Shown: positions 8,757 to 59,400, counted from the first letter of the stretch. The stretch: 64,000 nt of DNA from an uncultured Gammaproteobacteria bacterium (GCA_964592105.1 CAZQBL010000016.1:2560-66559); one strand, 5' to 3'. Notes: generated by a model not told the origin, from the letters alone. A program made the numbers and translations.

Positions 8757-8769
8757 TGAATAATTTATA

Positions 8770-19131: not shown

Positions 19132-19139
19132 CCAAAACA

Positions 19140-26219: not shown

Positions 26220-26221
26220 TT

Positions 26222-28916: not shown

Positions 28917-28928
28917 ACTAACATCAAT

Positions 28929-29774
28929 ATGGCCATAGATTCCGCCGACAAACCCCAGTGGCTGAAGGACATGAATAAAAGGACTTCGGATTATGAGCGT
29001 GACATGAAAAGGCATTTGAATGAGGTCGAGAGGAAATCCAAAAAACCGGTGGATAATGCTTTGGAGCACGACAGGACTTTTCATGAAACTAAGCAGGAGC
29101 ATGACCGCCAATTCATGAAGCAAAAAATCGCTGAATACAGCCCGGAAGCCATGAGTAGCCGCGAGACCCAGATGAGAAGAGAGTATCTCCGGGCAAAACA
29201 GCAGGAGTACCTTAATATTCCTTCCCCCGGCCAAACAGAAGAGAGTGAGGAAGAAGAAGGGGCCAAGGAAAGTGGTGGAGAAACAGCGCTGGAGGAACAA
29301 CAGGGCGGCATCAAAGGCGCCTTGGCTCGCCAGAAACAGAAAGACAGTATGGCCTTGGAACAGGCCAACAAAGCCAAAGCTGCTCTGGCGGCCGGTGAAA
29401 TCGGAGAGTTGGATGCCACGGTGGTTATTAAATATAAGCTTTTATGGAGCTATGTACATGAGTTTTTTGAGGATTTAGCGCTTTCGTTTTTTGATATAAT
29501 GCTGTTTACCGGACCTTTGTGCGTGGCTTTCTTTCTGTTCAGGATATTGGGCATGTTGAGCATCGGCAGAATGTTTACAATAAATTTCAAAGACGTGAAA
29601 GTTCCTCTGGTGCCGACGTTTAGTATGGCCGAGGTGCCATTACGGGTGGGAAAAACACTGCTTATTGCCGTTATCAGCGGAACCATCTGGTTATTAATAA
29701 TATTTGCCGCCTGGGTCGTGACGCATCAATTGGAGTTTACTTGGGAGTCGATTAAGGCCTTTCTCGGAATTTAA
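28929..29774 (+). CDS. hypothetical protein with charged coiled-coil N-terminus and two C-terminal TM helices
   Basis: ORF-track protein with hydrophobic segments FTGPLCVAFFLFRILGML and LLIAVISGTIWLLIIFAAWVV. Confidence 0.4.
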   Translation: MAIDSADKPQWLKDMNKRTSDYERDMKRHLNEVERKSKKPVDNALEHDRTFHETKQEHDRQFMKQKIAEYSPEAMSSRETQMRREYLRAKQQEYLNIPSPGQTEESEEEEGAKESGGETALEEQQGGIKGALARQKQKDSMALEQANKAKAALAAGEIGELDATVVIKYKLLWSYVHEFFEDLALSFFDIMLFTGPLCVAFFLFRILGMLSIGRMFTINFKDVKVPLVPTFSMAEVPLRVGKTLLIAVISGTIWLLIIFAAWVVTHQLEFTWESIKAFLGI

Positions 29775-29829
29775 AAAAATTTATAAGCAATTTATTCATC
29801 CTGAAGTAAATTTTATATAATAATAATCT

Positions 29830-31032: not shown

Positions 31033-31041
31033 TAATTTTTT

Positions 31042-42736: not shown

Positions 42737-43633
42737 TTAATTATTGATCGAACCCATCTGGCGTAAGGCGGCTATGCGTTTGTCAATAGGTGGATGAGTA
42801 GAAAAGAGGTTACTAAGGCCGCCAGCCATCGGGTTGGCGATGTAGAGATGCGCGGTTGAGTGCGTAGCCCGTTCGATGCGCGCGCCTTGGTTTTTAATTT
42901 TTTCTAAAGCCGAGGCCAGGCCTTCGGGATAACGGGTGAGCAAGGCGCCAGTAGCATCGGCCAGATATTCCCGTTTGCGCGATACGGCCAGACGGATGAG
43001 CTGGGCGATGATTGGCGACAGTATCAATAATAACAGCCCGACTAGAAAAAAAATGTTCCCGCCTGGGTCACGGTTATCGCGTCGGCCTCCGATAAATCTG
43101 GTGCGCCAGAAAATATCCGAAAGCATCATGATGGTTCCAACTAAAACAATCACCAGAGTCATATAGCGAATATCATAGTTGCCGATGTGCGACATTTCAT
43201 GGGCAATGACTCCTTCTAGCTCCTCGTTGGTCAATTTGGCGATCGCACCTTGAGTTACGGCAATTGAGGAGTGTTTTGGATCACGGCCGGTAGCAAAAGC
43301 GTTGATGTCTTCGTCGGGAATGATATAGACCCTAGGCATAGGCAGACCGGCGGTGATGGCTAAATTTTCCACCAGGCGCACTACATAGGGGTTTTGTTCT
43401 TTGGTAACAGGTTGGGCGCCTGAAGTCCAGAGGGCTATTTTATCGCCAGAGTAATAGCCAACCAGCGCAATTATCAAGGCGTATAGAAAGGCAATGATAA
43501 TCCAGAAATAACCGCCTGTGCCTTCAATCTGATCAATGGCGTAACCAAGGCTGATAAGGACAGCAAAACAAACAACCATTAGTATTATTGACCTGCGTTT
43601 GTTTGAGGCTATATGTGTGTAGATGGTGGGCAT
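42737..43633 (-). CDS. htpX: membrane zinc metalloprotease HtpX (M48 family)
   Basis: The HEXXH motif VIAHEMSHIGNYD, N-terminal TM helices and the downstream Glu-containing segment typical of M48. Confidence 0.9.
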   Translation of the reverse strand: MPTIYTHIASNKRRSIILMVVCFAVLISLGYAIDQIEGTGGYFWIIIAFLYALIIALVGYYSGDKIALWTSGAQPVTKEQNPYVVRLVENLAITAGLPMPRVYIIPDEDINAFATGRDPKHSSIAVTQGAIAKLTNEELEGVIAHEMSHIGNYDIRYMTLVIVLVGTIMMLSDIFWRTRFIGGRRDNRDPGGNIFFLVGLLLLILSPIIAQLIRLAVSRKREYLADATGALLTRYPEGLASALEKIKNQGARIERATHSTAHLYIANPMAGGLSNLFSTHPPIDKRIAALRQMGSINN

Positions 43634-43767: not shown

Positions 43768-44325
43768 CTAAAAGCTAACCTTCACCGGTTCTTTGGCTGC
43801 TTCTTCCTCAAGCTCAAAAAACTCACGTTTGCTGAACTTAAACATTGAGGCGACGATGTTGGAAGGAAAACTTTCGATTTTGATGTTGAAGTCGCGGACG
43901 TTGCCGTTATAAAATCTTCTGGCGGCCTGAATTTTGTTCTCGGTGTCTGATAATTCATCCTGCAATTTCAGAAAATTTTCATTAGCTTTTAATTCCGGAT
44001 AATTTTCGGCGATAGCGAATAAACTTTTTAGCGTGCCGGAAAGCATATTTTCTGCTTTGCCCTTTTCTTCAATACCTTGAGCGCCCATGGCTGCGGCGCG
44101 AGCTTGAGTTACTTTTTCAAAAAGTTCGCGCTCGTGTTTGGCGTAGCCCTTGACTGACTCCACCAAATTAGGAATGAGGTCATAGCGGCGTTTTAATTGA
44201 ACATCGATGTCTGACCAGGCTTCGTCCGTTTGGTTGCGCAGGCGGATCAGAGCGTTATAAACTGCTATGAACCAAAAAATTACGGCAGCGAGAGCGATGA
44301 TGATAATCCACAAGATTGGAGACAT
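43768..44325 (-). CDS. lemA: LemA family protein
   Basis: The N-terminal TM plus [42 protein letters not shown], the canonical LemA signature. Confidence 0.9.
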
Positions 44326-44355: not shown

Positions 44356-44883
44356 TTACGTACCCGGAGAAATTAGCAAATTTATAGTGCTGGCCAACAA
44401 TTCAGTCTCAGTCACAGATTCGTTTTCGGTTTGCACGATAATTTGATCACCATTTTTAAATTCGCTTAGTGAAATATTCTGTTTGTAATCGCCAGTGTTG
44501 CCCGGCGTGGGCGCTTGGGACAGATCGAGTTTTAAAAGTTGGGTGTTGGCATTGATTACCGCGGCGATTTCTTTGACTTGAGAAGCGCCATTTGCCTGTT
44601 TGACCTGCGTGGAAAAGTATATTTTATCATTTTCCACCCTGGTGACTCGTCCGTTGTAGCTTACGGTATTAGCGCCTTTGATCCGGTTATTACGTGCCGC
44701 GACTTCTTTTACGGAGATTATCGGAACTATGTTTTTGCCAGAACCCTGTCCGTTTTTTTTGCCGTAGAAATATCCGACCAAGCCAATTACGAGCAGAACA
44801 ATAATAATAACAGAAGAGGCGACGTAAGCGGTTTTAATTTTCTGGTGGGCGTCAGAGTTTTGATTATTTTTTTTACTTGACAT
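44356..44883 (-). CDS. membrane-anchored hypothetical protein
   Basis: An N-terminal TM (VASSVIIIVLLVIGLVGYFY) followed by a polar domain. It lies upstream of lemA and htpX on the same strand. Confidence 0.4.
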   Translation of the reverse strand: MSSKKNNQNSDAHQKIKTAYVASSVIIIVLLVIGLVGYFYGKKNGQGSGKNIVPIISVKEVAARNNRIKGANTVSYNGRVTRVENDKIYFSTQVKQANGASQVKEIAAVINANTQLLKLDLSQAPTPGNTGDYKQNISLSEFKNGDQIIVQTENESVTETELLASTINLLISPGT

Positions 44884-45025
44884 AAGGTCAAATAATGTGT
44901 TAAAATAAGAATACTATTTTTTGATTTTTTGGGTCATTTACCTTTTTAATTATCAAGAAAATATTTTAATTTGTCAACCTTGGTTTTTTCCTTAATTTTT
45001 TTACCTGGCTTTAGTCAAGATTATT

Positions 45026-47104
45026 ATGGAGGAAACGCGAAAAAATACAAAAAAATTTGAATGGCAATCTACAAAATGGGCTTATTATAGCCTGTTTTTT
45101 AGTTTGCTGATGATTTTGGTATTGGGAGACGGTCAAAAAGTGTTGGCGGCCTTTACCGAACCGACTAATCAACCTCCAGAGGAAAATATGCCAGGATTTC
45201 TGAATGTTAGTGGAGAAAATCAAGCCAAAAGCGGAAAGTTACGCTTGGGCAGCAGCGATAAGACCAATATCAATTTTCAACTGGAAGTTACCGGCGAAGG
45301 CGCGAAGATAAGCAATTCAGTTATAGATGAAGACTTGACCGTAAATAAAGGTACTCTGTACGTTGATTCATTGAACAATCGAGTTGGTATCGGCACGTTA
45401 GTTCCCACAGATAAGTTGACGGTACAGGGCAACGCATATATCGACGCTGCTGGTCTTGGGGTTGGCTTGGCGGCCTGGTCTGACAGCACTGATCAGCATA
45501 CCCTTTATGGATCTACGGCAAATACTAACTACGCTGGTGTGGCTGGAGTCGGGACATCAGCAGGTAACTACGGAGTTTATGGTTATAATTTTTCCGGGAC
45601 GGCCGTACGCGGCGAAAATACTTCAAATCAGATAAGCGCCATTTATGGCTATGCTGTTGACGGCCGGGCAATTTATGGTCATAACATAAATCCATATGGT
45701 TTGTGGGCTGGATATTTTTCCGGCCGTCTGGAAACTAATAAAGACTTAAGTGGCGCAAAATTTTTGGCTACTAGTTTGCAAGCTTCAGTTATACCTTTTA
45801 CTTCCGGTCAGATAACCCGGGAATATAATTATGGTGATCCGGTGCCATATGACGGTGCGCCGGCCATAAAATATTTCGACGGCACTTATCTTTGGGGTTT
45901 TCGCGGTTCCTATGTACATAAAATCAGGGCGTCCGACGGATTTAGAATTGCCGCATTCAACGTTGGTAATTTTCCCACCGGACTCGCCTATGATGGAAAA
46001 AACATCTGGGTGACAGTTGGTGGAGAGGCACTAAGTACGGTATCGAAGATTGATCCCAACAGTGGTTCGGTTTTGTGCAGTTACAACACGTTGACCAATG
46101 CCAGGGGCGTGTCTTTTGATGGCCGTAATTACTGGGTTTTGGACAGGATTTCTAGCAGGGCCGGAAAAATTATAAAAATCGACAGTACTTGCGCCAGGAC
46201 AGGAGAAATTTCTTTAACCACCACCACCGACGTAGATGTCGTAGATGGTCAGATTATTTTTAATGGTAGCTATCTCTGGGTTATTGGTAAGGACAGCGCC
46301 GGCAATGGCATTGTTTTTAATATCAATCCTTCAAACGGAAAAGCCATGGCCTGGTCAGACTTGGTTGGGCTCGACCCCCGGCAGATTTTTTATGACAATT
46401 ATTACTATTGGGTGACCAACTACGGTAGTGGTACTCTCACCAAATTCGTACTGACAGACAAAATTTGTACTATGCCGGATTTTGATCCGAACAACCTGCA
46501 ATATTGTTCGGTTGATTCTGATTGCGATTCAGCGCTTGGCATTGGCGACGGTGCCTGTTTCGCTCTGCCCGTTGAATATGAGTCTTATAACCTCGGAGCC
46601 GGGAGTCAGCCGCGCGAAATTATTTTTGATGGAACATATCTCTGGTTGGGCACCCAGTTCGGCGTTTTACGTTTGATGACAGCCGATCCCACCGTGGGCG
46701 CGGCAGCATTTGACACGCTGAATTTTCAGCCCAGCGGGTTAGTTTTTGACGGAACTTATGTTTGGTCTTCGGCCGGCTCGGTTTTGAAAAAAGTTTATAG
46801 CGGTACTGGGTACGGCCTCACAGATCTAGGAGGAGCGCTGACTCTTCAGAATAATAACCAGTTAATTCAGCAAACCGGAGATATAAATGTTAACGGCTCG
46901 GCTATTGTCGGAACCAACGCCATGGCTGATGAATTGGATGTTAGTGAAAATACTTGGGGCGAAGAAGTCGCCGGTGACGTCAGCGAAAACGACGGCGATG
47001 CTTTGGATCAGGGTACTTATTCTTGTCCGAATGGACATTTCGTGAAAAATGTTGTAACCAACGGGTCGGGTGAAGTAATACGTATAGAGTGCCGACCGTT
47101 GTAA
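45026..47104 (+). CDS. secreted beta-propeller repeat protein, paralog A of a three-gene tandem family
   Basis: A signal peptide ends VLAA/FTEP. A Gly/Tyr-rich segment (GVYGYNFSG...) follows. Seven repeats of the F(D/N)G.Y.W type are present: YFDGTYLW, YDGKNIWV, SFDGRNYWV, IFNGSYLWV, YYWVTNYGSG, IFDGTYLWL, VFDGTYVW. The C-terminal tail is SCPNGHFVKNV...IRIECRPL. Confidence 0.7.
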   Translation: MEETRKNTKKFEWQSTKWAYYSLFFSLLMILVLGDGQKVLAAFTEPTNQPPEENMPGFLNVSGENQAKSGKLRLGSSDKTNINFQLEVTGEGAKISNSVIDEDLTVNKGTLYVDSLNNRVGIGTLVPTDKLTVQGNAYIDAAGLGVGLAAWSDSTDQHTLYGSTANTNYAGVAGVGTSAGNYGVYGYNFSGTAVRGENTSNQISAIYGYAVDGRAIYGHNINPYGLWAGYFSGRLETNKDLSGAKFLATSLQASVIPFTSGQITREYNYGDPVPYDGAPAIKYFDGTYLWGFRGSYVHKIRASDGFRIAAFNVGNFPTGLAYDGKNIWVTVGGEALSTVSKIDPNSGSVLCSYNTLTNARGVSFDGRNYWVLDRISSRAGKIIKIDSTCARTGEISLTTTTDVDVVDGQIIFNGSYLWVIGKDSAGNGIVFNINPSNGKAMAWSDLVGLDPRQIFYDNYYYWVTNYGSGTLTKFVLTDKICTMPDFDPNNLQYCSVDSDCDSALGIGDGACFALPVEYESYNLGAGSQPREIIFDGTYLWLGTQFGVLRLMTADPTVGAAAFDTLNFQPSGLVFDGTYVWSSAGSVLKKVYSGTGYGLTDLGGALTLQNNNQLIQQTGDINVNGSAIVGTNAMADELDVSENTWGEEVAGDVSENDGDALDQGTYSCPNGHFVKNVVTNGSGEVIRIECRPL

Positions 47105-47250
47105 TAATAAGTAATTTGTAATTGGCAGTTTTTGGGAAACTATTGAAAAGTTTAAAGAAGCGTAAGTGTCGGCCAAGCGATGAAGCAAAGAAGTAGAAAA
47201 AGAAAATTATTGCAAAATAAATTTACAACCACTTCAGTACTAAAAACGTT

Positions 47251-50200
47251 TTGAAAATTAAGATGAGACATTCTGTCTATAAAACTAAATCAATAAAAAA
47301 ATCAACGCTGTTGTACCTTGGTTTGACCTGTTGGCTTTTGATTGCTGGATTTGGAATAAACGCGGCTCGGGCGGCTTGGGAAGAGCCGTCGGCAGAAGCG
47401 CCGGGCGGCAATGTGTTTGGTCCTTTAAACATTGGTCCTGATATGCAGACTAAACAGGGGCGTTTGCTTTTGGATCCACTTTATAATCCGTTGAATAGTA
47501 TGCCGCCAATCAACAACCAATTGGAGGTTAGAGGTGAGGGCGCTTATTTTTCTACCCTCTATGCCAGCCAAACCCTGGCGGTGGATACGGATACTTTAGT
47601 TGTCAATGACACTGGTCTCGGCATAGGTACGGCCAATCCCACCGTGGCTCTACAAGTGGCGGACAGCAGGGTAAGAGTGACGACTGATTTAGCCGGCGTT
47701 GCGGCGGTACAATCCCGGTCATCCGGAAGTAGCGGCCTTTATGCTTATGCCGAGGGTGCCGACCTTGCCGCGGTTTATGGTACGAGTGCCAGCGGGTTCG
47801 GAGTTTATGGAATTAATGAATTCGGCGGGACGGGGGTTTTTGGACGAAGCGAAACATCATCGGCGGTAGTCGGCAGCACCGCGGCAAGTTACAATCCTAC
47901 CAATATCATCGCCGGTGTTTACGGGCAGGCCAGCGGTTTGAATTCCTGGGCCGGGTATTTCCAGCAACGCCTGTTCGGGTCGGATCAGATCATCGGCAGG
48001 AAATTTTCACCCAATCGCCTGCAAAATTCCCAAATATCCTATACAGCTGGTTGGGAAATGAGACAGGTGGAGGATAGCCGTTACACCTCGCCTAAACACA
48101 TTGTTTTTGACGGAAATTATCTCTGGGTATCGCAGGCGGGGGAGTTTGACAATATGTTTATTATTGATCCTGTCTCTGGCACAATTGCTCAAGAGTTTTA
48201 TCCGGCTGATAACTATCACAATCATATCGTGCCCAATAAAATGATTTTTGTAAACGGTTACATCTGGGCGGCTACCAAGGTCAATACCGGAACGTGCATC
48301 CGTGGGTCAATCGCCAGAATAAACGTTGATCCGGACAATATTGAAATAATAAATTACCCTGTCACCGACTGTCCACCCAGCGGTTACAGCACTGCTATTG
48401 ACTTGGTTTATGACAATCAGACGACCGGCGGTCCGTACATCTGGACTGTTAATTGGATTAACCGCTATGGCGGCAACTATGATTATAGCCTTGGGCGTCT
48501 GAACCTGAATGATTATAGCTATATGCCGCCGATCAAGCCCTCTGGGCAGTGCCTAACTTTTGATCCCTCCAGGTGCAATGATGGTATTGATAATGACAGT
48601 GACGCTAATATTGATTTCGGCTGCAGCGGTGTACCTGGAGTGCCGCCAAATTATTCTTGGCTTTTAGATACGCAAGAAGAATGTGAAGGGGCTGGAGGCA
48701 GTTGGAATACTGGTGATACTCAGTGCACTAATATTGGCTGGGAATCACCTGACGGCAATGATATCACTAATGATGAAAGATTGGTAATGAAAGCATTAGG
48801 TCATCCGACGGGTATCACTATGGATACAAGCCGCGGTGATATTTGGGTGAGTTTTAATGGCATGGAAGCTTACAGCGCCGGAGAGCAATCTATCTCCGGT
48901 GAAGGGCTGATCAAAATTTCGGCTTCCAACACGGATGATTACTCGGTATATTGCCAGCAGAACAGTTCCGGCATCGCCTTGCCGGGTCGTAAGCCGGCGG
49001 ATATCGTTTATGACAGTGTTAATGACCGAATTTGGATAGCTCATGATCCAAGCTGGGTCAACTATCAGCCGGCCAGTGGCATCAGCAAGATAGATCCGGA
49101 GACAGGCAGGACAGAAGCGGAATATACGCGGCAAACCGGCTATGTATGGGGCAGTGGCGGACCGTTTGTCATTGATTTTGATAGTAGCTCCGATGGCGGT
49201 CCGTATATTTGGGCCAGTAACAGTGAACATGGCGAGCATTTGGTGAAGTTTGACATTGCCAATGCAACCTTTACTCATGATTATTATCCATTGCCGGGCA
49301 TAGTCTATGATTTCACTTTTGACAGGCGGAATCCGTCTAATCCTTATATTTGGGGTGCTCATGCCGACGCCAGTCTGCTTAGCCAGAATCAAATAAATAG
49401 TCCATATACAACAGTTACTTATGTCCCCAAGGGAGCCGCTTCTGGAGATGTATTGTTTGACGGAACTTATGTTTGGACCAGTAATAGAAGCGGATATTCC
49501 GTCAGTAAATATCGGGCCGTGGATGGAAAAAAAATAGGTGATTATGGCACCGGACGCAATCCAAACTTTATGGTTTTTGACGGCACTAATATTTGGACAT
49601 TCAACAATTATGACTTGCAAAGCCGAGATATTACCAAGATTCGGGCGATTGATGGAGCGCGCCTGGGCGATTTTAACAAAGGCCAAAGGGAGATGGGCGC
49701 TGACGCTGTTTTTGACGGTCGGTATATCTGGAATTCTAATTCATATTCAAACTCGCTAAGAAAAATAGATACGCAGAACTGCACCGATCCGGATGGCGGA
49801 GGTCCAGCAGTCGGCAGTTGTGCTAATAAATTATTCACGGCCTCGTCTGGCTTGCCGGTAAATTTTCAGCCTAATAAAATCATTTACGATGGAAATTACA
49901 TCTGGGCAACATCAAATAAATCCAATAATGGCAATCAAATTATAAAAATATCATTTAGCGATAATAATACGCCAAACAATATTAATGATGACACAATTGC
50001 AGTAGTCGGCACATATACTTTTACTGATATTGGTATAGCCACGGGTAATATTAATTTGATTGAGTTTGACGGCACTTATATCTGGCTGGGCACGATCGGA
50101 GTGGATGGTTTTGGCAATAGCGTTTATAAATTTGATCCAAATAACTGCTCCGGGAGTGCGTGTCCTCTGGCGGGGAGATTCCCCATTTACCATGAGGCGG

Positions 50201-51198
50201 GCAAATGTTCCAATACTAATTTGTATTGTTCAAAAAATGGGGATTGTACCGGGGGCGGGACATGCCAGATGATGGGATCCCGGGTTTCCGGTATGACTTT
50301 TGACGGGACGAATATGTGGATTTATAACGGTACCAGTAATGATAATATAGCGGCTAGGGAATGCAGTGATGACATTGATAATGATGGTGATGGCCTAAAA
50401 GATGGTGCTGATCCGAATTGCCGTAATTCGGGCAATTCTATTGATCTTCACGAAGCCAGTTTATGCGATGATAACATTGATAATGATAATGACGGATTGT
50501 GCGATTGGGATGGCTGCAATGGTCTGCCGGCTGAAGCAGAATGTATTGTGACAGGCAATACTGATAACCAAAACAAGATGCTGGATACCGAAGGTGCTAA
50601 AGATAGTAATGGTAATTGGATTTATTCTAATCAACTCGGCTTAACCGAGTGCCGTGATGGCAAGGATAATGACGGCAATGGTTTGTGTGATTTTGACGGC
50701 GCTGTGGGCAGTCCCGGCTGCAGCGGAAAGCCGGATCCGGGGTGTACAAACGCCGAAGATAGAAGTGAGGCTAGTCGGTTGCATGATTCCCATTTGACCC
50801 GCGTAGTCGCCGCGACGAATCAAATAGTTGAGAGCGTGCGGGTGGGTAATTACAGCCGTGCCTCGGGGATGATTTTTAATGGTTCTAGCATCTGGCTCGG
50901 CATCAGTAATGATAGTTACGTATTGCATCAATATTATTCAGGCAGTGGCCTTGGCGCGACTGACCTGGCTGGAGCGGTGAATCTTCAGGGTTCTTTGCCA
51001 GGCACTGCCCAGCCAGGTAGTTTCTCTATTTCTGGTTCCGCTGTTTTGGCCGGAAGATTGACGGTAGTGGGCGATCTAGTGGTTCAGAATAATGAGTGGG
51101 GTAGCGCGGGAGTGAATAAAAATTTTGGTACATCATGCGATGATGGTGAATTTGCCACGGAAGTCACTTCAACCGGCATTGTATGTAAAAAATTGTAG
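47251..51198 (+). CDS. secreted double beta-propeller protein with Cys/Asp-rich putative metal-binding (MopE-like) repeats, paralog B
   Basis: A signal peptide ends ARAA/WEEP. About 14 FDG.Y.W-type blades are present. Four C.DG.DND.DG motifs occur: CNDGIDNDSDANIDFGCSG, CSDDIDNDGDGLKDGADPNC, CDDNIDNDNDGLCDWDGC and CRDGKDNDGNGLCDFDG. The C-terminal tail is SCDDGEFATEVTSTGIVCKKL. Confidence 0.7.
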   Translation: MKIKMRHSVYKTKSIKKSTLLYLGLTCWLLIAGFGINAARAAWEEPSAEAPGGNVFGPLNIGPDMQTKQGRLLLDPLYNPLNSMPPINNQLEVRGEGAYFSTLYASQTLAVDTDTLVVNDTGLGIGTANPTVALQVADSRVRVTTDLAGVAAVQSRSSGSSGLYAYAEGADLAAVYGTSASGFGVYGINEFGGTGVFGRSETSSAVVGSTAASYNPTNIIAGVYGQASGLNSWAGYFQQRLFGSDQIIGRKFSPNRLQNSQISYTAGWEMRQVEDSRYTSPKHIVFDGNYLWVSQAGEFDNMFIIDPVSGTIAQEFYPADNYHNHIVPNKMIFVNGYIWAATKVNTGTCIRGSIARINVDPDNIEIINYPVTDCPPSGYSTAIDLVYDNQTTGGPYIWTVNWINRYGGNYDYSLGRLNLNDYSYMPPIKPSGQCLTFDPSRCNDGIDNDSDANIDFGCSGVPGVPPNYSWLLDTQEECEGAGGSWNTGDTQCTNIGWESPDGNDITNDERLVMKALGHPTGITMDTSRGDIWVSFNGMEAYSAGEQSISGEGLIKISASNTDDYSVYCQQNSSGIALPGRKPADIVYDSVNDRIWIAHDPSWVNYQPASGISKIDPETGRTEAEYTRQTGYVWGSGGPFVIDFDSSSDGGPYIWASNSEHGEHLVKFDIANATFTHDYYPLPGIVYDFTFDRRNPSNPYIWGAHADASLLSQNQINSPYTTVTYVPKGAASGDVLFDGTYVWTSNRSGYSVSKYRAVDGKKIGDYGTGRNPNFMVFDGTNIWTFNNYDLQSRDITKIRAIDGARLGDFNKGQREMGADAVFDGRYIWNSNSYSNSLRKIDTQNCTDPDGGGPAVGSCANKLFTASSGLPVNFQPNKIIYDGNYIWATSNKSNNGNQIIKISFSDNNTPNNINDDTIAVVGTYTFTDIGIATGNINLIEFDGTYIWLGTIGVDGFGNSVYKFDPNNCSGSACPLAGRFPIYHEAGKCSNTNLYCSKNGDCTGGGTCQMMGSRVSGMTFDGTNMWIYNGTSNDNIAARECSDDIDNDGDGLKDGADPNCRNSGNSIDLHEASLCDDNIDNDNDGLCDWDGCNGLPAEAECIVTGNTDNQNKMLDTEGAKDSNGNWIYSNQLGLTECRDGKDNDGNGLCDFDGAVGSPGCSGKPDPGCTNAEDRSEASRLHDSHLTRVVAATNQIVESVRVGNYSRASGMIFNGSSIWLGISNDSYVLHQYYSGSGLGATDLAGAVNLQGSLPGTAQPGSFSISGSAVLAGRLTVVGDLVVQNNEWGSAGVNKNFGTSCDDGEFATEVTSTGIVCKKL

Positions 51199-51247
51199 AA
51201 AATTTAATTGTCATTTTTAGGACAATGACAAAGTAAAACAATACATA

Positions 51248-53344
51248 ATGAATCGTTCAAATAGAAAATTAAATTATTCTCAAAAAACAGCCGGACTGTA
51301 TATGAGTTTTATGATGATTTTTTTTATCGCGCTTTTTGGCGCAAAAATGACGAGAGCCGACTGGCGCGAGCCGACAGCACCGCCGCCAACAAAAAATATT
51401 TATCCTCCGTTGACTGTCAGTGGGGAGCCGCAGGCCAAGGCCGGAAAATTAAAACTTGATCCAAACTTTAATCCTGATAACCTGACCACTTTATTAACTT
51501 ACCCTCTGGAAGTTGTGGGGACCGGTAAAGTAATAAAGGGCGCAGCGGATAATTTGCGAGTCGCTGACACCTTGTTTGTGAGTGCCGATGAAGACAAGGT
51601 TGATATTGCTAGTAAGCCCACTAATAACTCGGCAAAATTAACTGTTTATGGTGGCAAAGTGCAGATCGGGACAGAACTCAATCCTGTTTCTGGTCAGGCT
51701 TTGTGGGGAGAAAGTGCCAGTGGGCACGGAATTCTTGGCACGACTTTGGCTTCGAGCAGCAGTCAAGTTTATGCCGGAGTCAGAGGTGAAAATAACAATG
51801 CTCGGGGTTATGGCGTTTGGGGTTTATCAAGCAGTAGCGGAGCGAATGCCAGGTCCGGCGTTTATGGCCAGACCAAGGGCGGTGCTGGTATCTATGGCGT
51901 AACAAACTCATATTTGTACGCGGCTGTTTATGGGGAAAATACTGCGGCTATCAATATGGGCTGGGCCGGTTATTTTGACGGTAATCTGGGCGCCGGTTCT
52001 GATGTAGTTTCCAGCAGGTTTCTGCCGACAAATCTTCGGCGGTCACTTATACCGTTCACCTCGGGGCAGGCGGTGAGCAATTATTCTTTTGGACAATGGT
52101 CGTCCACTTGGCCCGATAACGGCGTGCTGGCTTTTGATGGTACTTATGTTTGGCTGGCGACAAATCGGGATGACAGTGTGACCCACAATAACCTTTTTAA
52201 ACTTCGCGCTTCTGATGGTCAATTGATTAAATCCTATCAAATCGGCGACAATTTGTGGGCCATAACTTTTGACGGGCGCTACCTTTGGCTTTTGGATCAG
52301 GATGGTGATTTACGGCGTTTTGATCCGGTAAACGAAACGGCTGCGCCATTGGTGATAAGCGGCGCGAGTCTGGAGTTAGATTCCGACGACACCACGCCTT
52401 ATCTGGCGGTCAGTCATCAAAGTGGTCATACATATATTTGGTTAGTTGATAGAGGTGATGATCGGGTTATCAAGGTAAATTCCTTTTTGGCGAACATCGA
52501 TTCCGCATATTCTTTGGATGCTTTAGTTGATAGCGCCGTTTATGATCCCATGGGCATTACCTACGATGGAAAATATATTTGGGTAGCCGCGCGTGGCGAC
52601 GGCGGATACTTAATTCGTCTCTGGGCTGAAAATCCTTCAAATCCCACCGACCCGGCCGATCGGCCGTTGCGTTTTGATACTACCACCGATCAACTGGCCT
52701 GCCCTCCCTATAATGTGGTGGCAGACGGTCTGCATGTCTGGTGTCTGCCGGATCAGGGTTCCGACACGGAATTGGTACGTGTGTGGGCAGCCAATCCTAA
52801 CGATCCGCGCCATCCGGCTAAGGATTTTGGCGCGTTCAGTAGCGTGCAGCTTAAAGATGGCACGACGGACGGGACTTACCTCTGGGTGGTCAGTTTGCAG
52901 GACAGACGGCTGTACCGGTTCTTATTGGCTGATCCTGGCCAGTATACTTATTTCACAGTTTCGTTCGAGGAACCCAAGGAAATACTTTTTGACGGGACAT
53001 ATTTATGGATTCCCGAGACGTCAGGCACCGCCGCCCCCACGTTGCATAAATATTTTTCCGGCAACGGCCTCGGACATACCGATTTGACTACCGTTGTTAA
53101 TTTGGACTCCTCGCCTGCCCAAAACGGCAATTTCAATATTTTTGGTACAGCTGAGGTCGGCGGCACTTTGTCAGTAGGAGGCGATCTGGTGGCCAAAAAT
53201 AATACTTGGGATCCGGCGGGTGATGACGTAGCCGTTCCGGTTTTTGGGGGTTTGGCCTCTTGCGCTGTCAATGGCCACTTCATCAAAGGTATTACGATTG
53301 GTGCCGACCATAAAATAAGTGCAATTGTGTGCCGGGGGCTGTAA
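51248..53344 (+). CDS. secreted beta-propeller repeat protein, paralog C
   Basis: A signal peptide ends TRA/DWREP. The conserved N-terminal module PLTVSGEPQAKAGKLKLDP is present. Blades include AFDGTYVWL, TFDGRYLWL, TYDGKYIWV and LFDGTYLWI. The C-terminal tail is SCAVNGHFIKGITIGADHKISAIVCRGL. Confidence 0.7.
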   Translation: MNRSNRKLNYSQKTAGLYMSFMMIFFIALFGAKMTRADWREPTAPPPTKNIYPPLTVSGEPQAKAGKLKLDPNFNPDNLTTLLTYPLEVVGTGKVIKGAADNLRVADTLFVSADEDKVDIASKPTNNSAKLTVYGGKVQIGTELNPVSGQALWGESASGHGILGTTLASSSSQVYAGVRGENNNARGYGVWGLSSSSGANARSGVYGQTKGGAGIYGVTNSYLYAAVYGENTAAINMGWAGYFDGNLGAGSDVVSSRFLPTNLRRSLIPFTSGQAVSNYSFGQWSSTWPDNGVLAFDGTYVWLATNRDDSVTHNNLFKLRASDGQLIKSYQIGDNLWAITFDGRYLWLLDQDGDLRRFDPVNETAAPLVISGASLELDSDDTTPYLAVSHQSGHTYIWLVDRGDDRVIKVNSFLANIDSAYSLDALVDSAVYDPMGITYDGKYIWVAARGDGGYLIRLWAENPSNPTDPADRPLRFDTTTDQLACPPYNVVADGLHVWCLPDQGSDTELVRVWAANPNDPRHPAKDFGAFSSVQLKDGTTDGTYLWVVSLQDRRLYRFLLADPGQYTYFTVSFEEPKEILFDGTYLWIPETSGTAAPTLHKYFSGNGLGHTDLTTVVNLDSSPAQNGNFNIFGTAEVGGTLSVGGDLVAKNNTWDPAGDDVAVPVFGGLASCAVNGHFIKGITIGADHKISAIVCRGL

Positions 53345-53476: not shown

Positions 53477-56400
53477 GTGAATCGTTTAAATGGCCGCGAT
53501 AATAAATTCTCACTGGCTTTAGCCAGGAACGATCAAAGTGGCTTTGAAAATAATATGAGTAAGTTCACTAAATACATCTCCTATACAGTATTAATTCTGG
53601 CCCTGGCCGGGGTCTTGGCGGCTGGGTTGTTTTTGATAACTTATATGATGAGTAAACCAGCAGAAAAGGCAGTGGGTCCGGTTGGAGTTGATCCGGAAAC
53701 GCAGATAGATGAATCAGTACAGAAAATTAGCCGTAATTATAGTGAAGTTTTAAACGAAGATGGCACGAGGACCGCTACTTTTACCTTGGGCCAAAGCCAG
53801 TATCTTGATGCGAATGGAACTTATCAGCCGATTGACACTAACTTAGTGGCTTCCGAGGGGGATTTTGCTTATAAAAACGAAACCAACGGCTTCCGGTCGT
53901 ACTTCAGCGCCAGCGCAACAGCAGATAATTTTGCCAAGTTTCAAATTGGCGACCGGTCAGTGGCTTTTTCATTCGTTGAGCCTAACGGATCAACCGCTGC
54001 TGTTGACGACAATACGATTATTTATCCGAATGTTTATGACGGCTTAGACGCCAAATACACCATTACCGGCGACGAATTTCTGGAAGAACTGATCGCCAGA
54101 AAGGAATTGACTGTAGATAGAATCAGCCAAAAAATAAAATTAAACGGCGTTTATTATAAACAGCAACCAGACGGCTCCATTACTTTTCATGATGAAAAAA
54201 CGAAGAAAATAGCCTGGCTGGCGCCGGCGCCGGTCATGTACGAGCAGAATAATCCCGAAAAAATCAGCTCAGGTCTGCATTATGAAATACAGGAAAGCGG
54301 GGAGGGGATTATTCTAAGCAAAGTGATTGATCAGGCAGGCAAGCAGTGGCTGAAAACCGCGACTTTCCCAGTAGTGATTGAGCCGACTTATTCGCCTCCA
54401 CCTTATTATGTCAGCGGCCCTTGGGGCTATCTGCGACGGCGGACTGATGGTGGCATCATATCGACTTTTCTACATTATACGCCTGGCGAGGTTAAAAATC
54501 ATACAGTATATACACGACATCACTATCAAGCCCGTTCCTATTTGAGTTTTGACACCAGTTCAATCGTGGACAGCGCTGTTGTCCAGACTGCCACTTTGGC
54601 AGTAACTATGGACAGCTGGGGTGCATGTCTAAGTGACGGGTCAAGCTTTCAGCGGATTTATTCCTGCAAAGACACCTGGAGTACTTTGGATAGCAGTACC
54701 TGGAATTCTTGCCTTACTACTCGAGACGGCAATGTCCGAATAGGCACGGGCGAATTTTGGGGGCCGGGCGAAACTGTGACCATTAATGTCAGCCCTGTCA
54801 ATATCAGCACCATTGGCGCAAGTCAATTTAATTTAGATTATCGGGGTATAGTTGCTCCAAATGATGATGTAAATTGTTGGGTCCAATATCACATTGGGTC
54901 TGGCGGTGCTGCTCGGCCAGTTCTCACCGTAACTTATTTAGCTCAACCTGCGCCGCCTAACAATTTTGAAATATTGCCAGCTACTACCCAGGACTCGCTG
55001 ACCATGACTTTTTCCGATCAAACCACTGATGAAGACGGCTGGGTAATACAAACCTCGTTGACAGGCGCTGATGGCACCTGGATTGATATGTGCGATATCC
55101 CGACGGCTAGCCCTAGCGGGGGTTGTTATAATTATTTGAGAGGAGAGTACTCTTGTCATAATACCTCTAAGGCGAATTATGATTATGACGACGGCACTAC
55201 CCACCGCTACTGCACGGTGACCCATTATGACTTTACGACTACTCCCAACTCAAAACACTACTACCGCATTGCTTCTCGCGCCAATGACGTGCCGGGCAGT
55301 CCTTACTGGATCGGCGAAAGTTTTCAGCTTAGCACGCCGACTTATCGGTACACCCTGGCTTCTCCAATTACCGTAGCGCCGACCACAGTGACCTCGCCCG
55401 GCTGGAATTATTATCAGATTCCGAGCGGTGGTTTGCCGGGTGGCCTGCCGACTTTTTGCCTCGGAGCGAGATTTTTGGCTCCCAATGGCACCTGGCCGCC
55501 CGCAACTCCGACCGTCGGCACCAGATACCTTATGGAAAGAGCATATACTCAGTCCGGCGTCGGCACGGTAAGCGCCTATGTTTTGACCAGTAACCCCAAT
55601 AGATGCACCCAACATACTTTAGCTGAGTGGAACGCTTTGCTCCCGATAGTGATTCCCGCGGCGGAGGTGCCTTATCCAATATGGCCAAATCGTTTGTTCG
55701 AGTTTGGTTTTTATTCCGTAAATGGTGACGGCGTACTGACCGAGCCGACAGTTTTTCGGTCCAGATATAGCCGAGCGAGACGGCCGTCCGCGCCGGCTAT
55801 CAGCAACATCACCAGCACCAGCATGACTGTCAAAATTGATACTGCGCCATCTGACGGGTTTACAAAGCCTTCAACTCCGCCAGCCGGGTGTAGTGATACA
55901 ATTTGCGGCGATGTGAATAGGGATTGTGATGTTACGGGAAGCGATGTTTCCTATTTTGTCAATTATATAAAAAATGGCGGCGGTTTCGTGGAAAATTGGA
56001 CGGGTGATGTTAATGGCGACGGCGTCATTAATAGTTTGGATATACTGTATCTTGTTGATTTTTTTCAAGGAGAAATAACTTTGAATTGTGGTGGGGCAAA
56101 TATTCTTAATCCGGCTTGGACTGATTATGAGGTAGGGACCACATCAGGTTCTTATATCAACGTAAGCGGAGCAAATGGGAATTTGCAATCCAACGAGCGC
56201 TGGTATGATTACGACGGTATGTGCTCGGTGGATAATTATATGACTTGTCATGTGGCTAATGACTGTCCTAGTCCACAAACATGCATCATCAGCGGTACAA
56301 CCTGGGGAGGCGCCGCAGGGGTCAACCTCACTGGCTTGACTCCTAATACTTGCTATACTTTTCAGGCTAGGTCGCGAAACAATACCGATCTCATTGTTTC

Positions 56401-59400
56401 AAACTGGCAAACAGGCTCACAACAATGCACTCTGGCGGCCGTACCTGGCAGTCCGGGTGTATCCTGCAATTATGACGATGACATCACAAAACAGTATTTT
56501 TGCCAGGTGACCATTACTAATCCAAATGGCAATCCGAATGGCACCCAATATTTAACTGAATACTCATATGACAATGTCAATTGGGGTCACTGTTCGAACA
56601 ATCCGGCTATTGCTTGTAATGATGCCACTCCTTGCGGCGGCGGTAATTGCGTTACGAATATAGCAGAAGATTGGACAGCCTATCCTAAGTCAGGCGGTTC
56701 CTGGTTATTGAGCCATAATCAATTGACCTGCGACGCCGGCCACTCGCGCTATTATTACCGGGTCAGGGCCAGGAATTCGGTAGGAGTGGTGACTGATCCC
56801 TCGCCGGTCGGTTCCGACACCCTGCCGCCTTGTCCAGTATCTGTCAATCATTATGATAATCCTGTTTGTCGGAAAAATAGTTATCTTGATGGCTGGCCGG
56901 AAGATCCACAATGCGACTTAGCCGATCCTTTTGATCCGCAGAGTGAAGACGAGTTCCCGGTTTTCTGGTGGTGGCGGCCGGCGGTGAGCGGCCGTGAGAT
57001 ACAGGCTTATCAAGTTTATTTACATAGTCAAGATGGTAATGATTATTGTCTGGCAGGTATTCCCCTTGAACAATTCGGGTGTGGTGAAACAGTGCGTTTG
57101 AAAACCGAGGGGGAAGAATTTAAACAGCCATGGCGGGAGTCTGAGTGGAATGAAGTTGAAATCCCTCAGATCAACGAAAGAGGTATTATTTTCAAGCAAT
57201 TTTTTCAGGAAGGTGCCAAAGATCCTACGACTCCAACCATGACCCTACCTAACCATCAGTACGAGATTATTGTTCGCGGAGTCGATAATCTAGGCAAAAT
57301 GGGTGCACCTTCGACATTAGGTGTATCGGCAGATAATTCTGCATACACCCACTTCGAACAACCCGAGCCTGTCAATTTGGAAATTAGTCGCGTAAACCAG
57401 GAAAATAGGATAACCATATCTACTTCTAATCCCCAGAGACATTGCGATGGTGAGGATTTCTGTAATTTAACTGGATTAAATAATTCCGGTTTGCAATTTA
57501 AAGTGGTGTCAGTCTCAGAAGGAGGCACTGAAGCGCCTCAAGGCGGCGGCGAGACCGGTTTTGATCTGTCAAATGTTTATAAATCTTTAAGTGTTGTTGA
57601 TCGGCAATTATCTACAAACCGCAGATATTGTTATAACGTTCGCGGCTACAACGGTGATTGCGTTGATACGGATCCGACTGACGGCGAGTGCGATCAATTG
57701 AACGATTCGACATCATGGGCCAGAGACATGACCTGCGCCTTTACCTGGGCCAATGTGCCGCACGCACCGCGGCTAATCAAACAGGAGGGCACGACTGATA
57801 CTACGGTTATTATTAGGTCCGACGACGGCAACCCCCATCCCACTACTGAGCCAACCAACGAAGCCGGCGCTAACACCCGGTACGCCATGTGCGTGACTAA
57901 ATATTCTGCCACTGATCAGGTTGATTTTCGCCGATATGTCAGCCCGACAACGGGATTTTTGGGCAGCTGTGCTGGCTATCCAAATGTCAGCAACGAAAAT
58001 GATTGTACTAACCCGCCTTATAACAGCACCTGGACCTGGAACGACAGCTGTGACCAACCAAACAGTTATCTGACCACGCCGGAAAAGTATTGGAGCGTGC
58101 GCGGATCTGGCACTGGCAACGGTTGGGGCGGGGATGATGGCGTTTTGCTGACCGGACTGGAAAATTCTAAGTATGATTTTAGTTTTCAGGCCAGAAACGG
58201 CGATAAGGTGCCGACCCAATTCGGTCCGGCGGCTACGCTATTTTTGGTCAGAAACAATGTGGTGGGCTGGGCCTGGTCCTCTAATGCTGGCTGGATTTCG
58301 CTTAATTGCCTGAACATGTGGGCTAATCCCACTGTTTACGGCTATAGCTGTAATAGTGCTGATGAGTGGGGCTTGAACACCTATTATGTTGAGGGCCGTG
58401 AGTATAATCCGCTGGAAGGGTATGCCTGGTCAGCATCAGGTCTGGCTTTGGGTGGAGAATGGACAGAGGCGGAGAATGTGAGCCGGGTAAAGAATGTGTC
58501 CTCAGCTTATGGCGCGCCATCTTTGGCGGTAGATGTTTACGGCAATCCGCATCTGGCTTGGGCAAATCGTGCCGGCGGTGATCGTACCGACATTTATTAT
58601 TTAAAAAAAGAAAATGGCGAGTGGAGAACCGCCGATGACACGATCTATGTTCCTGGTTCCACCCCTTCAGTCAATGTGACGAATACTAACGCCTTGGCTT
58701 CAGTTATGCCCTCATTGGCGTTAGATTCGAGCGGTCTGCCTCATCTGGTTTGGTATGAAGAGGGCGGAGGTGTGTTTTATTTGAAGTGGGATACGGCTGA
58801 TAATCGCTGGGAAACAATTCTTGGTTGGGATTTTGCCACAGCCAATATCCCAGCAAACCGTGGAACGTCCGGGCTTAGAATTTCCCCTCCCGGAAATAAC
58901 GGCAACAATACACCGCATCTTGTTTTGGATAAAAAAAATCTGCCGCACGTGGTTTATACATTTAATAATGAAATATATTATAAATACTGGGATTCTACGG
59001 CCAGTTCAGGTGATGGGGCTTGGGTTGATGCTAACGGTGAAGCCGGAGGAGAGGATCGTCTCAATGTCAGTAATACTGGCGCAGAGGAGAATTATTGTTC
59101 CACCGATCCCAAGCTGGCTTTGAGCAATGAAGCCGAGCAGCGGCCATATATAGTTTGGAGGCAATCAGACCCGAACAATGAAGGTTGCGATGAAACCGGT
59201 GCGGTTTATTTAAGGAGATGGGACGGGGCAAACTGGGTGACCGTCAGCGGCGACAGCGATCAGGGTTATAACGGTGCCAATTTACACGTTAATTTTGGTG
59301 TGGCGGGGTATGTGGAAGAAAATAATCCGCCGGATAATTATCATGCCGAATCGCCCAATTTGGCTCTTGATTCGCAAAACCGGCCAGGCGTGGTCTGGCG

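Follow-up and report, generated by a model that had tools for sequence, protein, structure and literature searches.

Results

Gene organization at the locus

The window analysed here is the whole 64-kb stretch of DNA. Three adjacent, co-oriented genes on its plus strand, FibA, FibB and FibC, are located at positions 45026-47104, 47251-51198 and 51248-53344 and encode proteins of 692, 1315 and 698 aa; the three ORFs proposed by a sequence-only reading were recovered with the same coordinates and lengths. The start of FibB is ambiguous, as it may be TTG at 47251 (1315 aa) or ATG at 47263 (1311 aa), and database calls for this protein are 1295 and 1311 aa. All three proteins follow a common plan. 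Behind a Sec-type signal peptide, the mature chain opens with a conserved N-terminus and a Gly/Tyr-rich stalk that terminates in WAGYF; one or two seven-bladed propellers come next, and a two-cysteine tail forms the C-terminus. FibA consists of a signal peptide (aa 1-41, cleavage predicted at VLA↓A), the N-start motif (aa 42-75), a tail-fibre-like stalk up to WAGYF (aa 227), a 7-bladed propeller (approximately aa 263-590), a C stalk (aa 591-641) and a C-terminal cap (aa 642-692). FibC contains a signal peptide (aa 1-37, TRA↓D), the N-module, about 7 blades, the C stalk and the cap. FibB has an N-module as in FibA, followed by about 14 blades (two propellers), acidic double-disulfide repeats, the C stalk and a short-loop cap. 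Judging from these sequences, the three are most likely secreted, phage-tail-fibre-like proteins, in which differing beta-propeller heads are carried on a common scaffold with a two-cysteine cap.

Upstream, the minus strand encodes htpX (M48 peptidase, 42737-43633; Peptidase_M48, E 7.3e-33), lemA (43768-44325; LemA, E 4.8e-66) and a 175-aa protein with an N-terminal hydrophobic segment (44356-44883), in agreement with the htpX, lemA and membrane protein genes that had been reported there. This small membrane protein had no significant family match and evolves fast (21-47% identity, versus 76-81% for LemA). Downstream of FibC, the plus strand encodes a giant protein of 3100 aa (53477-62779) with a hydrophobic N-terminal segment, a DNRLRE domain, and dockerin and BNR_4 matches. 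By eye, part of it resembles the insertion that interrupts the cap hairpin in the L001 FibB orthologue. In the window, a pilM gene directly follows the giant gene.

The order A-B-C and then the giant gene, with short gaps, was observed in 10 of 10 related Patescibacteria loci, and in each of them the triad was divergent from the constant neighbours htpX, lemA and the small membrane protein gene. These ten loci all belong to a single related lineage, with 71-75% identity in ClpC. The same uncharacterised trio occurs in the same order in every related genome examined, and we read the three genes and the downstream giant gene as a conserved operon-like unit. A promoter-like site (TTGACA-18-TAAAAT with TG, 44877-44906, plus strand) precedes the FibA gene and a divergent one is at 44977-44949 (minus strand). 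Both have a consensus score of 11/12, but they match by consensus alone, and such sites are no more numerous in the region than in shuffles. No terminator-like sites were detected in the intergenic gaps of the window. The neighborhood is chromosomal housekeeping, and phage genes were not found nearby.

Conserved ends and divergent heads

The ends of these proteins had been suggested to be specially conserved, and alignment by region agreed with this: identity between paralogues was 34-56% in the ends and 25-28% in the propellers, rather than uniformly low. Specifically, it was 34-51% in the first 35 mature residues, 36-56% in the WAGYF..TSGQ segment, 37-50% in the C stalk and 41-43% in the tail. 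BLOSUM scores per residue were 1.0-3.1 in these four segments versus 0.35-0.59 in the center, and the variable part of the N stalk was intermediate (28-35% identity, 0.6-0.9 per residue).

In contrast, the description of the array as a diversifying family was not supported. The N-modules of the paralogues are approximately 30-34% identical and no closer within one genome than across genomes, no DNA-level similarity among the three genes was detected, and every head is conserved across its orthologue line (26-48% identity). Together with the fixed order in all ten loci, this shows that the array is an ancient, fixed A-B-C triad and not a recently diversifying one. Diversification by a DGR was also considered. 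Direct repeats of at least 40 nt involving the three genes, as expected of a template/variable pair, were absent anywhere in the 64-kb window, and no reverse transcriptase was found among the part of the window ORFs that were scanned.

Signal peptide and N-terminal module

In 73 complete family members, the signal peptide has a basic n-region and then a run without charged residues (median length 19 aa), with A/V/T at position -3 and Ala at position -1 in 63 of the 73. The A.A-type site noted previously follows the -3/-1 rule in these relatives. A type IV pilin or pseudopilin was rejected, as the basic region and hydrophobic run lead to AxA and the class III signal peptide (G↓F...E) is absent. 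The mature-start motif EP..PP..N...PL..G.E.QAK.G.L.L was found in all three proteins, as had been proposed. However, the exact first residue was different: the predicted cut retains one residue (A/E/D) ahead of F/W, giving (A/E/D)(W/F)xEP and not (F/W)xEP. Similarly, WAGYF of the proposed WAGYF.G.L segment is present in all three proteins, whereas G.L is present in FibA and FibC but not in FibB (WAGYFQQRL).

The FibA N-module (45149-45811, plus strand) is composed of the mature N-terminus, the VGIGT motif, Gly/Tyr repeats and WAGYF..TSGQ. Its residues 57-145 are 38% identical to a segment of a cyanophage S-RIM44 tail fibre protein (tblastn, E 5e-5), and residues 86-143 match phrog_5906 (E 7e-7). 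The Fib proteins contain the shaft elements of Peptidase_S74-type tail-fibre-like proteins (VGIGT..P..L.V.G, Gly/Tyr repeats, AGYF), and the Peptidase_S74 fibre proteins P0067 and P0072 carry elements of the N-module (profile matches and motif reading). The N-start motif also heads S74-type fibre proteins as well as unrelated small proteins that share only this motif (P0159-P0164). No entry in Pfam, NCBIfam or PDB covers either conserved end. These similarities indicate that the N-module is a homologue of the tail-fibre shafts of phages and bacteria and is not a known sorting signal. As an AlphaFold2 monomer, the FibA N-module had pLDDT <50, which may also reflect disorder or a shallow alignment (26-40 sequences).

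Propeller heads

FibA has 7 blades by motif (FDG.Y.W), and its residues 258-596 fold as a propeller in the AlphaFold2 model (pLDDT ~90), with Foldseek matches to WD40 and YVTN propellers (E down to 1e-10); model, Foldseek and motif count all identify a seven-bladed fold of the YVTN/NHL/WD40-like type. What the structural matches share is the generic fold, with sequence identities of 9-18%. By motif, FibC has about 7 blades and FibB 12 strict and a few degenerate ones (approximately 14 in total), matching the 7 or 14 counted earlier. In a Pfam scan of the three proteins, no NHL, YVTN or DUF6454 match exceeded the gathering threshold; DUF6454 scored best in FibA (21.9 bits vs cut-off 22.3), with 16.5 bits in FibC and no match in FibB. 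A TtfA-like match reached 19 bits (cut-off 600). Only FibB contains three acidic double-disulfide repeats (aa 1038-1165, at aa 1038, 1072 and 1134), detected as three stretches by NF033662 (42.3 bits vs cut-off 41).

C-terminal stalk and cap

The predicted two-cysteine tail was seen in FibA (SCPNGHFVKNVVTNGSGEVIRIECRPL), FibB (SCDDGEFATEVTSTGIVCKKL; short-loop cap, 51133-51195, plus strand) and FibC (SCAVNGHFIKGITIGADHKISAIVCRGL; cap ending in CRGL, 53258-53341, plus strand), and the end motifs were absent from every other ORF of the window. The FibA cap (NxWG ... C667 ... C689-R-P-L-COOH; 46949-47101, plus strand) is predicted to be a three-stranded beta mini-domain of approximately 50 aa, with pLDDT 79-88 when the C-module was modeled alone, whereas the first half of this module, the C stalk, had monomer pLDDT <50. 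The C-stalk motif is repeated 5-9 times in some unrelated giant proteins, and its sole echo in PDB was T4 long tail fibre gp34 (E 8.8, not significant).

C667, G670 and C689 (FibA numbering) are invariant. Of 73 complete relatives, 68 have an even cysteine count in the mature protein and, based on cysteine conservation and parity only, the two invariant cap cysteines probably form a disulfide. The cap is the exact C-terminus in approximately 98 of 100 relatives, with Leu as the last residue in 95/98 and Arg at position -3 in 77/98; the final four residues are CRPL (40), CRGL (19), CKKL and similar. Extra domains in relatives are located directly ahead of the cap or within its hairpin loop, and the final strand stays C-terminal despite insertions of 400-950 aa in the hairpin. 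In addition, P0149 has the N-start, stalk and cap without any propeller. Scaffold and cargo are therefore separable. The cap is also found, as the only shared element, at the end of small proteins (P0142, P0152, P0154). Both conserved ends recur on otherwise unrelated proteins and act as modules that can be separated.

Known C-terminal signals did not account for this tail. Sortase- and exosortase-type signals (LPXTG, PEP-CTERM, GlyGly-CTERM, MYXO-CTERM and others) had no NCBIfam or Pfam match, and the tails (e.g., VKNVVTNGSGEVIRIECRPL) lack a TM-length hydrophobic stretch or a hydrophobic helix with a basic cluster. The T9SS C-terminal domain is a beta-sandwich of approximately 70-100 aa (TIGR04183-type models); it had no NCBIfam match, and the confident part of the cap has only about 50 aa and three strands. 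A CaaX prenylation box was excluded because the middle residues are R-P or R-G, not aliphatic, and the proteins carry signal peptides for export. Since the tail has no features of sorting signals and folds as a mini-domain, a structural or assembly role is the simpler reading. The strict position at the extreme C-terminus would also allow a recognition role.

Family distribution

The family is rare, with approximately 100 clusters among 1.84 billion representatives and occurrence in 6 of 185,579 species genomes, so it is no envelope component of CPR bacteria at large. Accessory BNR and LamG domains are grafted onto some relatives, and SLH domains are found in two distant propeller relatives (P0049, P0050).

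Discussion

We consider it reasonably probable that the three proteins are oligomeric fibre adhesins exported by Sec, and that their conserved ends serve in scaffolding and assembly. After Sec export, signal peptidase I would cut behind the conserved AxA. The N-terminal ~220 aa and the C-terminal stalk of ~50 aa would form shaft segments of the tail-fibre type, whose folding probably requires oligomerisation, most likely into a trimer; the N-module and C stalk failing as monomers while the propeller and cap fold is the pattern expected of obligate oligomeric shafts in such models. One or two propellers might be looped out between the two shaft segments, which is possible because the two ends of a propeller adjoin each other, and would serve as ligand-binding heads, each paralogue keeping its own specificity. 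The last ~50 aa would be a beta-sheet cap, probably disulfide-stapled, that closes the shaft end or sets its register, and may take the assembly role of the S74 intramolecular chaperone, which the Fib proteins lack. As fibres, the proteins would have conserved ends because these elements are common to all three chains, and differing heads because the targets bound differ. On this view, a Patescibacteria bacterium would display three differing fibres on its cell surface, or possibly a single fibre built from three chains. Attachment to a host cell or substrate is the likely role, and fits the epibiotic lifestyle described for cultivated Patescibacteria. In Saccharibacteria, the heptabladed-propeller protein PilX2 is required for efficient host binding (PMC11623550). 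It should be noted, however, that a structural function of the cap alone gives no obvious reason for C-R-(P/G)-L to be the very last residues, that this reading does not account for the constant htpX-lemA-small membrane protein neighborhood, and that no wall-binding or anchor domain was found in the Fib proteins.

An alternative that we regard as unlikely is that the ends are signals recognised by a sorting or maturation pathway not yet described. Once the signal peptide has been removed, the N-start motif would be recognised for docking or anchoring, and the extreme C-x(15-30)-C-R-x-L-COOH would be recognised by an enzyme of processing or attachment, for which the always-adjacent htpX, lemA and small membrane protein genes are possible candidates. 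The near-invariant C-terminal position of the cap with its Leu and Arg, the last strand kept terminal behind long insertions, the presence of both ends on unrelated small proteins, the adjoining genes in 10/10 loci and a small membrane protein that evolves as fast as the fibres are consistent with such a pathway. However, the tail resembles no modeled sorting signal and its CxxL is no CaaX box; it is a confident mini-domain with buried-type conservation, and the N-start runs without a break into a shaft with tail-fibre homology. HtpX and LemA are widespread housekeeping envelope genes, and within a single lineage the synteny may be inherited rather than functional.

It is also doubtful that the proteins are envelope building blocks (an S-layer or surface lattice) rather than ligand-binding adhesins. 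The YVTN propeller of an archaeal S-layer protein (1L0Q) was among the structural matches, distant relatives have SLH domains, and three fixed, conserved paralogues whose heads are also conserved would suit a lattice, but the Pfam scan revealed no SLH or other S-layer anchoring domain in FibA, FibB or FibC, the family is rare, the shaft modules are of tail-fibre type, and the domains grafted onto relatives (BNR, LamG) are of the binding type. Even less probable are secreted propeller enzymes (e.g., glycosidase- or lactonase-like) for nutrient acquisition with the fibre parts as mere spacers: putative 6-phosphogluconolactonases and hydrazine synthase occur among the structural matches and BNR or sialidase-like domains in some relatives, whereas these matches reflect the generic fold and no enzyme family reached threshold, the subthreshold DUF6454 and TtfA-like scores being the only hits.

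Among the closest known systems are tail-fibre-like proteins of bacteria and phages that end in a Peptidase_S74 intramolecular chaperone (endosialidase-chaperone type). P0067 has a signal peptide and then a W.(E/A)PT..PP..N...PLN.S...Q.K.G.L start, and proteins of this type share the VGIGT..P...L.V.G motifs and GVYG.S-type Gly/Tyr repeats ending in AGYF.G (P0072). However, the Peptidase_S74 domain (PF13884) of P0067 and P0072 is absent from FibA, FibB and FibC (Pfam scan, E up to 1), in which AGYF is followed by a propeller, another short shaft and finally the two-cysteine cap. The S-RIM44 protein aligned with FibA is gp170, a 3496-aa tail fibre protein, and the T4 gp34 repeats weakly echo the C-stalk motif Q.G.(F/I)N(I/V).G...(V)G..LTV.G at the non-significant E value given above. 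Unlike phage long tail fibres, the Fib proteins are encoded on the chromosome away from detected phage genes and have Sec signal peptides. The T4 fibritin foldon, which serves in trimerisation, is a functional analogy only, as a C-terminal beta-hairpin domain (~27-50 aa) of a fibre without a separate chaperone domain; the foldon (27 aa) showed no profile similarity or structural match to the cap and has no cysteines, whereas the cap has two invariant ones. P0035-P0044, from other phyla, likewise place a propeller of the subtype seen here ('ASDG...FDG..IWV', YncE/NHL type) on a fibrous stalk (collagen-like or tail-fibre), and P0044 also contains the Q.K.GKL.LG and VGIGT motifs, but their propeller is C-terminal (..SKL), with no second shaft, cap or A-B-C triad. 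Finally, PilX2 has a propeller of the RCC1 type and is associated with type IV pili, whereas the Fib proteins have no pilin-type N-terminus; it shares with them the 7-bladed propeller and a Patescibacteria origin, and is a surface protein with a non-canonical signal peptide (PMC11623550).

Organization of the locus

Three open reading frames were called one behind another on the forward strand: FibA (45026-47104, 692 aa), FibB (47251-51198, 1315 aa counted from a TTG codon) and FibC (51248-53344, 698 aa). The start of FibB is ambiguous (47251-47265): the first in-frame TTG is at 47251, an ATG follows four codons downstream at 47263, and public gene calls give 1295 and 1311 aa. FibA and FibB are separated by 146 bp, FibB and FibC by 49 bp, and FibC is followed after 132 bp by a giant gene on the same strand (53477-62779, 3100 aa), whose product has a hydrophobic N-terminal segment, three DNRLRE-domain stretches, a dockerin type I match and BNR_4-like repeats. 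A consensus scan, which reports pattern matches only, placed a strong promoter-like site 5' of FibA and a divergent one ahead of the genes on the opposite strand; in the gaps between genes, it detected no terminator-like site. On the opposite strand, moving upstream, are genes for a 175-aa protein (44356-44883) with an N-terminal hydrophobic segment, for which a family match was not found, then LemA, the M48 peptidase HtpX and ClpC (the last identified from its domain architecture in syntenic loci). A prophage origin was rejected, as the neighbors are ClpC, HtpX, LemA, RecG, RadA and tRNAs. In databases, the three fiber proteins of the window are recorded only as hypothetical proteins.

Conserved ends and divergent centers

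The sequence-only reading had ascribed four features to the three proteins, namely a signal peptide, a common mature start, a Gly/Tyr-rich segment ending in a WAGYF block and a C-terminal two-cysteine tail. All four were found in FibA, FibB and FibC and are absent from every other open reading frame of the window. Among 73 complete relatives, the signal peptide is made up of a basic stretch and an uncharged one (median length 19 aa), followed by A, V or T at position -3, Ala at -1 (63 of 73), and then A/E/D, W/F and x-E-P, a pattern that reads as a textbook signal peptidase I site. The signal peptide thus stood, and the proposed start of the mature protein at F/W did not, since the predicted cut leaves one residue before it.

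When the paralogs were aligned region by region, identity was 34-56% in the mature start, WAGYF block, C stalk (the segment preceding the tail) and tail, against 28-35% where the N stalk is variable and 25-28% in the propeller region; substitution scores per residue were 1.0-3.1 in the four conserved end segments versus 0.35-0.59 in the center. By both measures the ends are therefore more conserved than the center, as had been supposed, and the contrast is moderate. FibA has seven clean FDG.Y.W blades, FibC about seven and FibB about fourteen; FibB additionally carries three acidic double-disulfide repeats.

A small family with fixed gene order

A full-length search detected about 30 relatives with the same architecture, whose lineage labels, where given, are Patescibacteria. 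When 1.84 billion cluster representatives were searched exhaustively with a profile of the C-terminal 100 aa, only 105 proteins came up at E values up to 0.001. A scan of 185,579 species genomes revealed six loci, all of the Patescibacteria type, two of them bearing a Gammaproteobacteria label, and a metagenome scan added three further short family loci and nothing else. The family is small and restricted to one Patescibacteria lineage. The two MAG contigs labeled 'uncultured Gammaproteobacteria' (L003, CAZBNI010000091.1; L006, CAYPXF010000005.1) carry a Patescibacteria-type locus with the fiber trio, and their LemA is 76-78% identical to that of the window; their label probably stems from faulty binning or naming.

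Ten other loci had sufficient flanks for a synteny comparison (L001, L002, L004, L005, L006, L007, L035, L036, L037 and, partly, L003). In all ten, htpX, lemA and the small membrane protein gene are on one strand and the A-, B- and C-type genes and the giant gene on the other, with some contigs stopping before one side of this arrangement. The giant's ortholog (up to ~4950 aa) comes after the trio in every locus. The gene for the counterpart of the 175-aa protein is invariably the trio's nearest divergent neighbor; its product changes at the same pace as the fibers and could be their partner or anchor. In L035, a Y1-transposase gene (17360-17950) is located between FibC and the giant gene with the gene order otherwise intact, and a 23S rRNA intervening-sequence protein gene (8475-8705) between htpX and lemA.

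Across loci, identity to the window was 71-75% for ClpC, 76-81% for LemA, 27-45% for the fibers and 21-47% for the small membrane protein. Within each ortholog line, heads (the propellers) were 26-48% identical, N-modules (mature N-terminus through the WAGYF block) 38-65% and C-modules (C stalk plus tail) mostly 41-63%. N-modules of paralogs were ~30-34% identical, in the same genome and in different genomes alike, and no nucleotide-level repeats were found between the three genes. A diversity-generating retroelement (DGR) or recent gene conversion was rejected on these grounds: DNA repeats involving the three genes were not found and paralogs within one genome are not excessively similar. The array had been described as diversifying; these comparisons point instead to three old paralog lines and a fixed trio with three specialized heads, each conserved along its ortholog line.

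Shaft-like segments around a propeller

AlphaFold2 predicted FibA aa 258-596 as a propeller with pLDDT of ~90 (26-sequence alignment), with pLDDT below 50 for the N-module (aa 35-257) and aa 597-644 and 67-76 for the last 40 residues. In Foldseek, the head of FibA matched generic seven-bladed propellers of the WD40/YVTN type with E values as low as 1e-10.

The N-module has relatives among phage and bacterial fibers. One segment of the cyanophage S-RIM44 tail fiber protein (3496 aa) is 38% identical to FibA aa 57-145 (E 5e-5), phrog_5906 matches FibA aa 86-143, and the N-module profile hits bacterial proteins built of VGIGT-type and GVYG.S-type repeats, with a Peptidase_S74 intramolecular chaperone at their C-terminus. 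Like the trio, the S74-type protein P0067 has a signal peptide followed by the same mature start (W.AP...PP..N...PLNVS...Q.K.G.L), and P0072, of the same type, has the AGYF.G block, here directly ahead of the S74 domain. However, FibA, FibB and FibC lack the S74 chaperone, unlike these related proteins. From these matches we infer that the whole N-module is a tail-fiber-type shaft and that the mature-start motif is its usual beginning. This motif also opens small secreted proteins of 110-165 aa; a profile search with it detected six small proteins and no others. A search with the whole-N-module profile missed even known family members and returned only weak stalk relatives, probably because Gly/Tyr repeats swamped candidate selection.

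The C-stalk motif, Q.G.FNI.G...VGG.L.V..N, occurs 5-9 times in some unrelated giant proteins and appears to be fiber-like as well. Its sole echo in PDB was T4 gp34, which was not significant; PDB sequence searches with the N- and C-module profiles, and searches of Pfam, NCBIfam and PDB with either end, gave no significant match. The C stalk has a near-constant length of 48-52 aa wherever a Cys-rich insert is absent, and the shaft lengths of A, B and C are almost constant throughout the loci, leaving little variation whose covariation could point to a heterotrimer.

The C-terminal cap

When the C-module was predicted alone (40 sequences), the first 50 residues had pLDDT below 60 (residues 1-29 below 50), and the last ~50 residues, from NxWG to the end, formed a short strand and a beta-hairpin with pLDDT of 79-88. 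We refer to this mini-domain as the cap; a Foldseek match in PDB was not found for it. Its consensus is C-P-(D/N)-G-x-(F/Y)-(V/I)-K-(G/N)-(I/V)-...-(I/L)-x-C-R-(P/G)-L-COOH, in which the two cysteines and the glycine are invariant. The cysteines are separated by 15-30 residues, the shorter loops belonging to B-type caps. An even number of cysteines was counted in 68 of the 73 complete mature relatives, as would be expected of an exported protein with all its cysteines in disulfide bonds.

The cap is the end of the protein in all relatives except P0027 and P0073, which extend a few residues further. Additional domains occur directly before it (BNR/sortilin-type propellers in P0007, P0015 and P0016) or within its hairpin loop, where eight representatives, including the FibB ortholog of L001, carry inserts of 400-950 aa. 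In the latter, the first half (SC..GEFAKGI) is unmoved and the last strand (..L.CRPL) is still at the extreme C-terminus. One region of the giant resembles, by eye, the 950-aa insert of the L001 protein; such a likeness would link giant and fibers by domain exchange. In the small proteins P0154, P0152 and P0142, little besides a signal peptide and part of a C stalk precedes the cap, and P0149 has the mature-start motif, stalk and cap and no propeller. Thus, given these proteins and the tolerated inserts, scaffold and propeller cargo are separable. Two proteins with the mature-start motif contain internal cap-like half motifs, CGEGEFASGV...C in P0160 (165 aa) and SCPIGQFVTSIGLTLNC in P0069 (332 aa), and for this reason the C..G.F..(G)(V/I) hairpin may be reused more widely than the strictly terminal cap. 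Homology of the tail to foldon was rejected (hhalign probability 0.3%, no Foldseek match), and foldon is kept as a functional analogy only.

Possible assembly and alternative readings

In the model that we propose, FibA, FibB and FibC would pass through Sec and lose their signal peptides by a cut after AxA. Oligomeric, probably trimeric, shafts like those of the tail-fiber relatives would then be built from the N-module and the C stalk, and the propellers would loop out from between these two segments and serve as binding heads. The cap, with its putative disulfide staple, would close the distal or terminal end; as the trio lacks the S74 chaperone of its relatives, this domain may help to bring the chains into register. 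The three fibers would make up one surface apparatus, plausibly for attachment, together with the giant encoded on the same strand and perhaps the small membrane protein encoded divergently.

What keeps alive the idea that the conserved ends are sorting or maturation signals is that C-R-x-L is strictly terminal and the M48-LemA neighborhood constant. However, the tail has no feature of known C-terminal signals (we looked for known C-terminal sorting signals, a T9SS CTD, a pilin signal and SLH, and found none) and is predicted to fold as a domain, and the loci all belong to a single lineage, in which synteny may be mere inheritance. A CaaX box processed by M48 as a Ste24-like protease was rejected, since the two middle positions hold R-P or R-G and these are exported proteins. 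It is also conceivable, and in our estimate rather unlikely, that the ends constitute a hitherto undescribed two-part code by which surface fibers of Patescibacteria are assembled or sorted. In one version, the putative disulfide-stapled cap could be a new chaperone-independent registration domain that joins FibA, FibB and FibC in one heterotrimeric fiber with three heads. In the other, the invariant C-x(n)-C-R-x-L-COOH end could be recognized by a dedicated system that attaches the fibers to the cell surface, possibly the M48 peptidase, LemA and the small membrane protein that are always encoded next door. Both versions are compatible with the gene order, which is fixed, the strict 1:1:1 co-occurrence, the near-constant C stalk and the exactly C-terminal position of the cap. 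S-layer building blocks and secreted enzymes are possible but less supported readings of the trio.

Other features of the window

A pilM gene (type IV pilus assembly; 62862-63980) begins 83 bp behind the giant gene and extends almost to the window end. A type IV secretion-like cluster (25536-33654) includes a TraG/VirB4-type P-loop ATPase (26222-28114), a T4SS-pilin domain protein (29830-31032) and a second such protein fused to an SLT lytic transglycosylase (32305-33654), and is followed by a RadA-like gene (33661-34998). The cluster resembles the monoderm-type T4SS reported for Patescibacteria (PMC12102498). Very large open reading frames in the region 10987-22232, of 2714 aa (CBM_4_9 carbohydrate-binding domains) and 1030 aa (no family match), are further candidate surface proteins; neither the mature-start nor the cap motif is present in them. 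A 52-nt direct repeat with 77% identity, starting TAATGTATAATTTTAAGAAATAT, occurs at 8768-8819 and 25445-25496, 16.7 kb apart, where long open reading frames were not called, and may be a shared promoter or regulatory element.

Significance and comparison with known systems

How Patescibacteria (CPR) recognize and hold their hosts is little understood beyond type IV pili, and this locus is a concrete candidate: its four genes form a small surface module, lineage-restricted and strictly conserved, in which the three propeller heads could recognize host or substrate. The cap, present in ~100 sequence clusters of 1.84 billion, and the mature-start motif are short, portable and unannotated modules that could help find more surface proteins of these organisms. 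If the proteins are ordinary adhesins, the result is a tidy annotation of hypothetical proteins with no new principle; interest grows if the cap turns out to be a new assembly or sorting element, and as a self-sufficient fiber registration domain it could serve protein engineering, as foldon does.

In Saccharibacteria, a propeller-bearing surface protein is required for efficient host binding (PMC11623550), which is a precedent for the trio and not evidence of homology. Secreted fiber-plus-propeller proteins on bacterial surfaces are an already known kind. What is new here is a scaffold that adds a second shaft and carries its two-cysteine cap strictly at the C-terminus, the lack of an S74 chaperone, an A-B-C-giant operon whose order is fixed, and the confinement to one Patescibacteria lineage.
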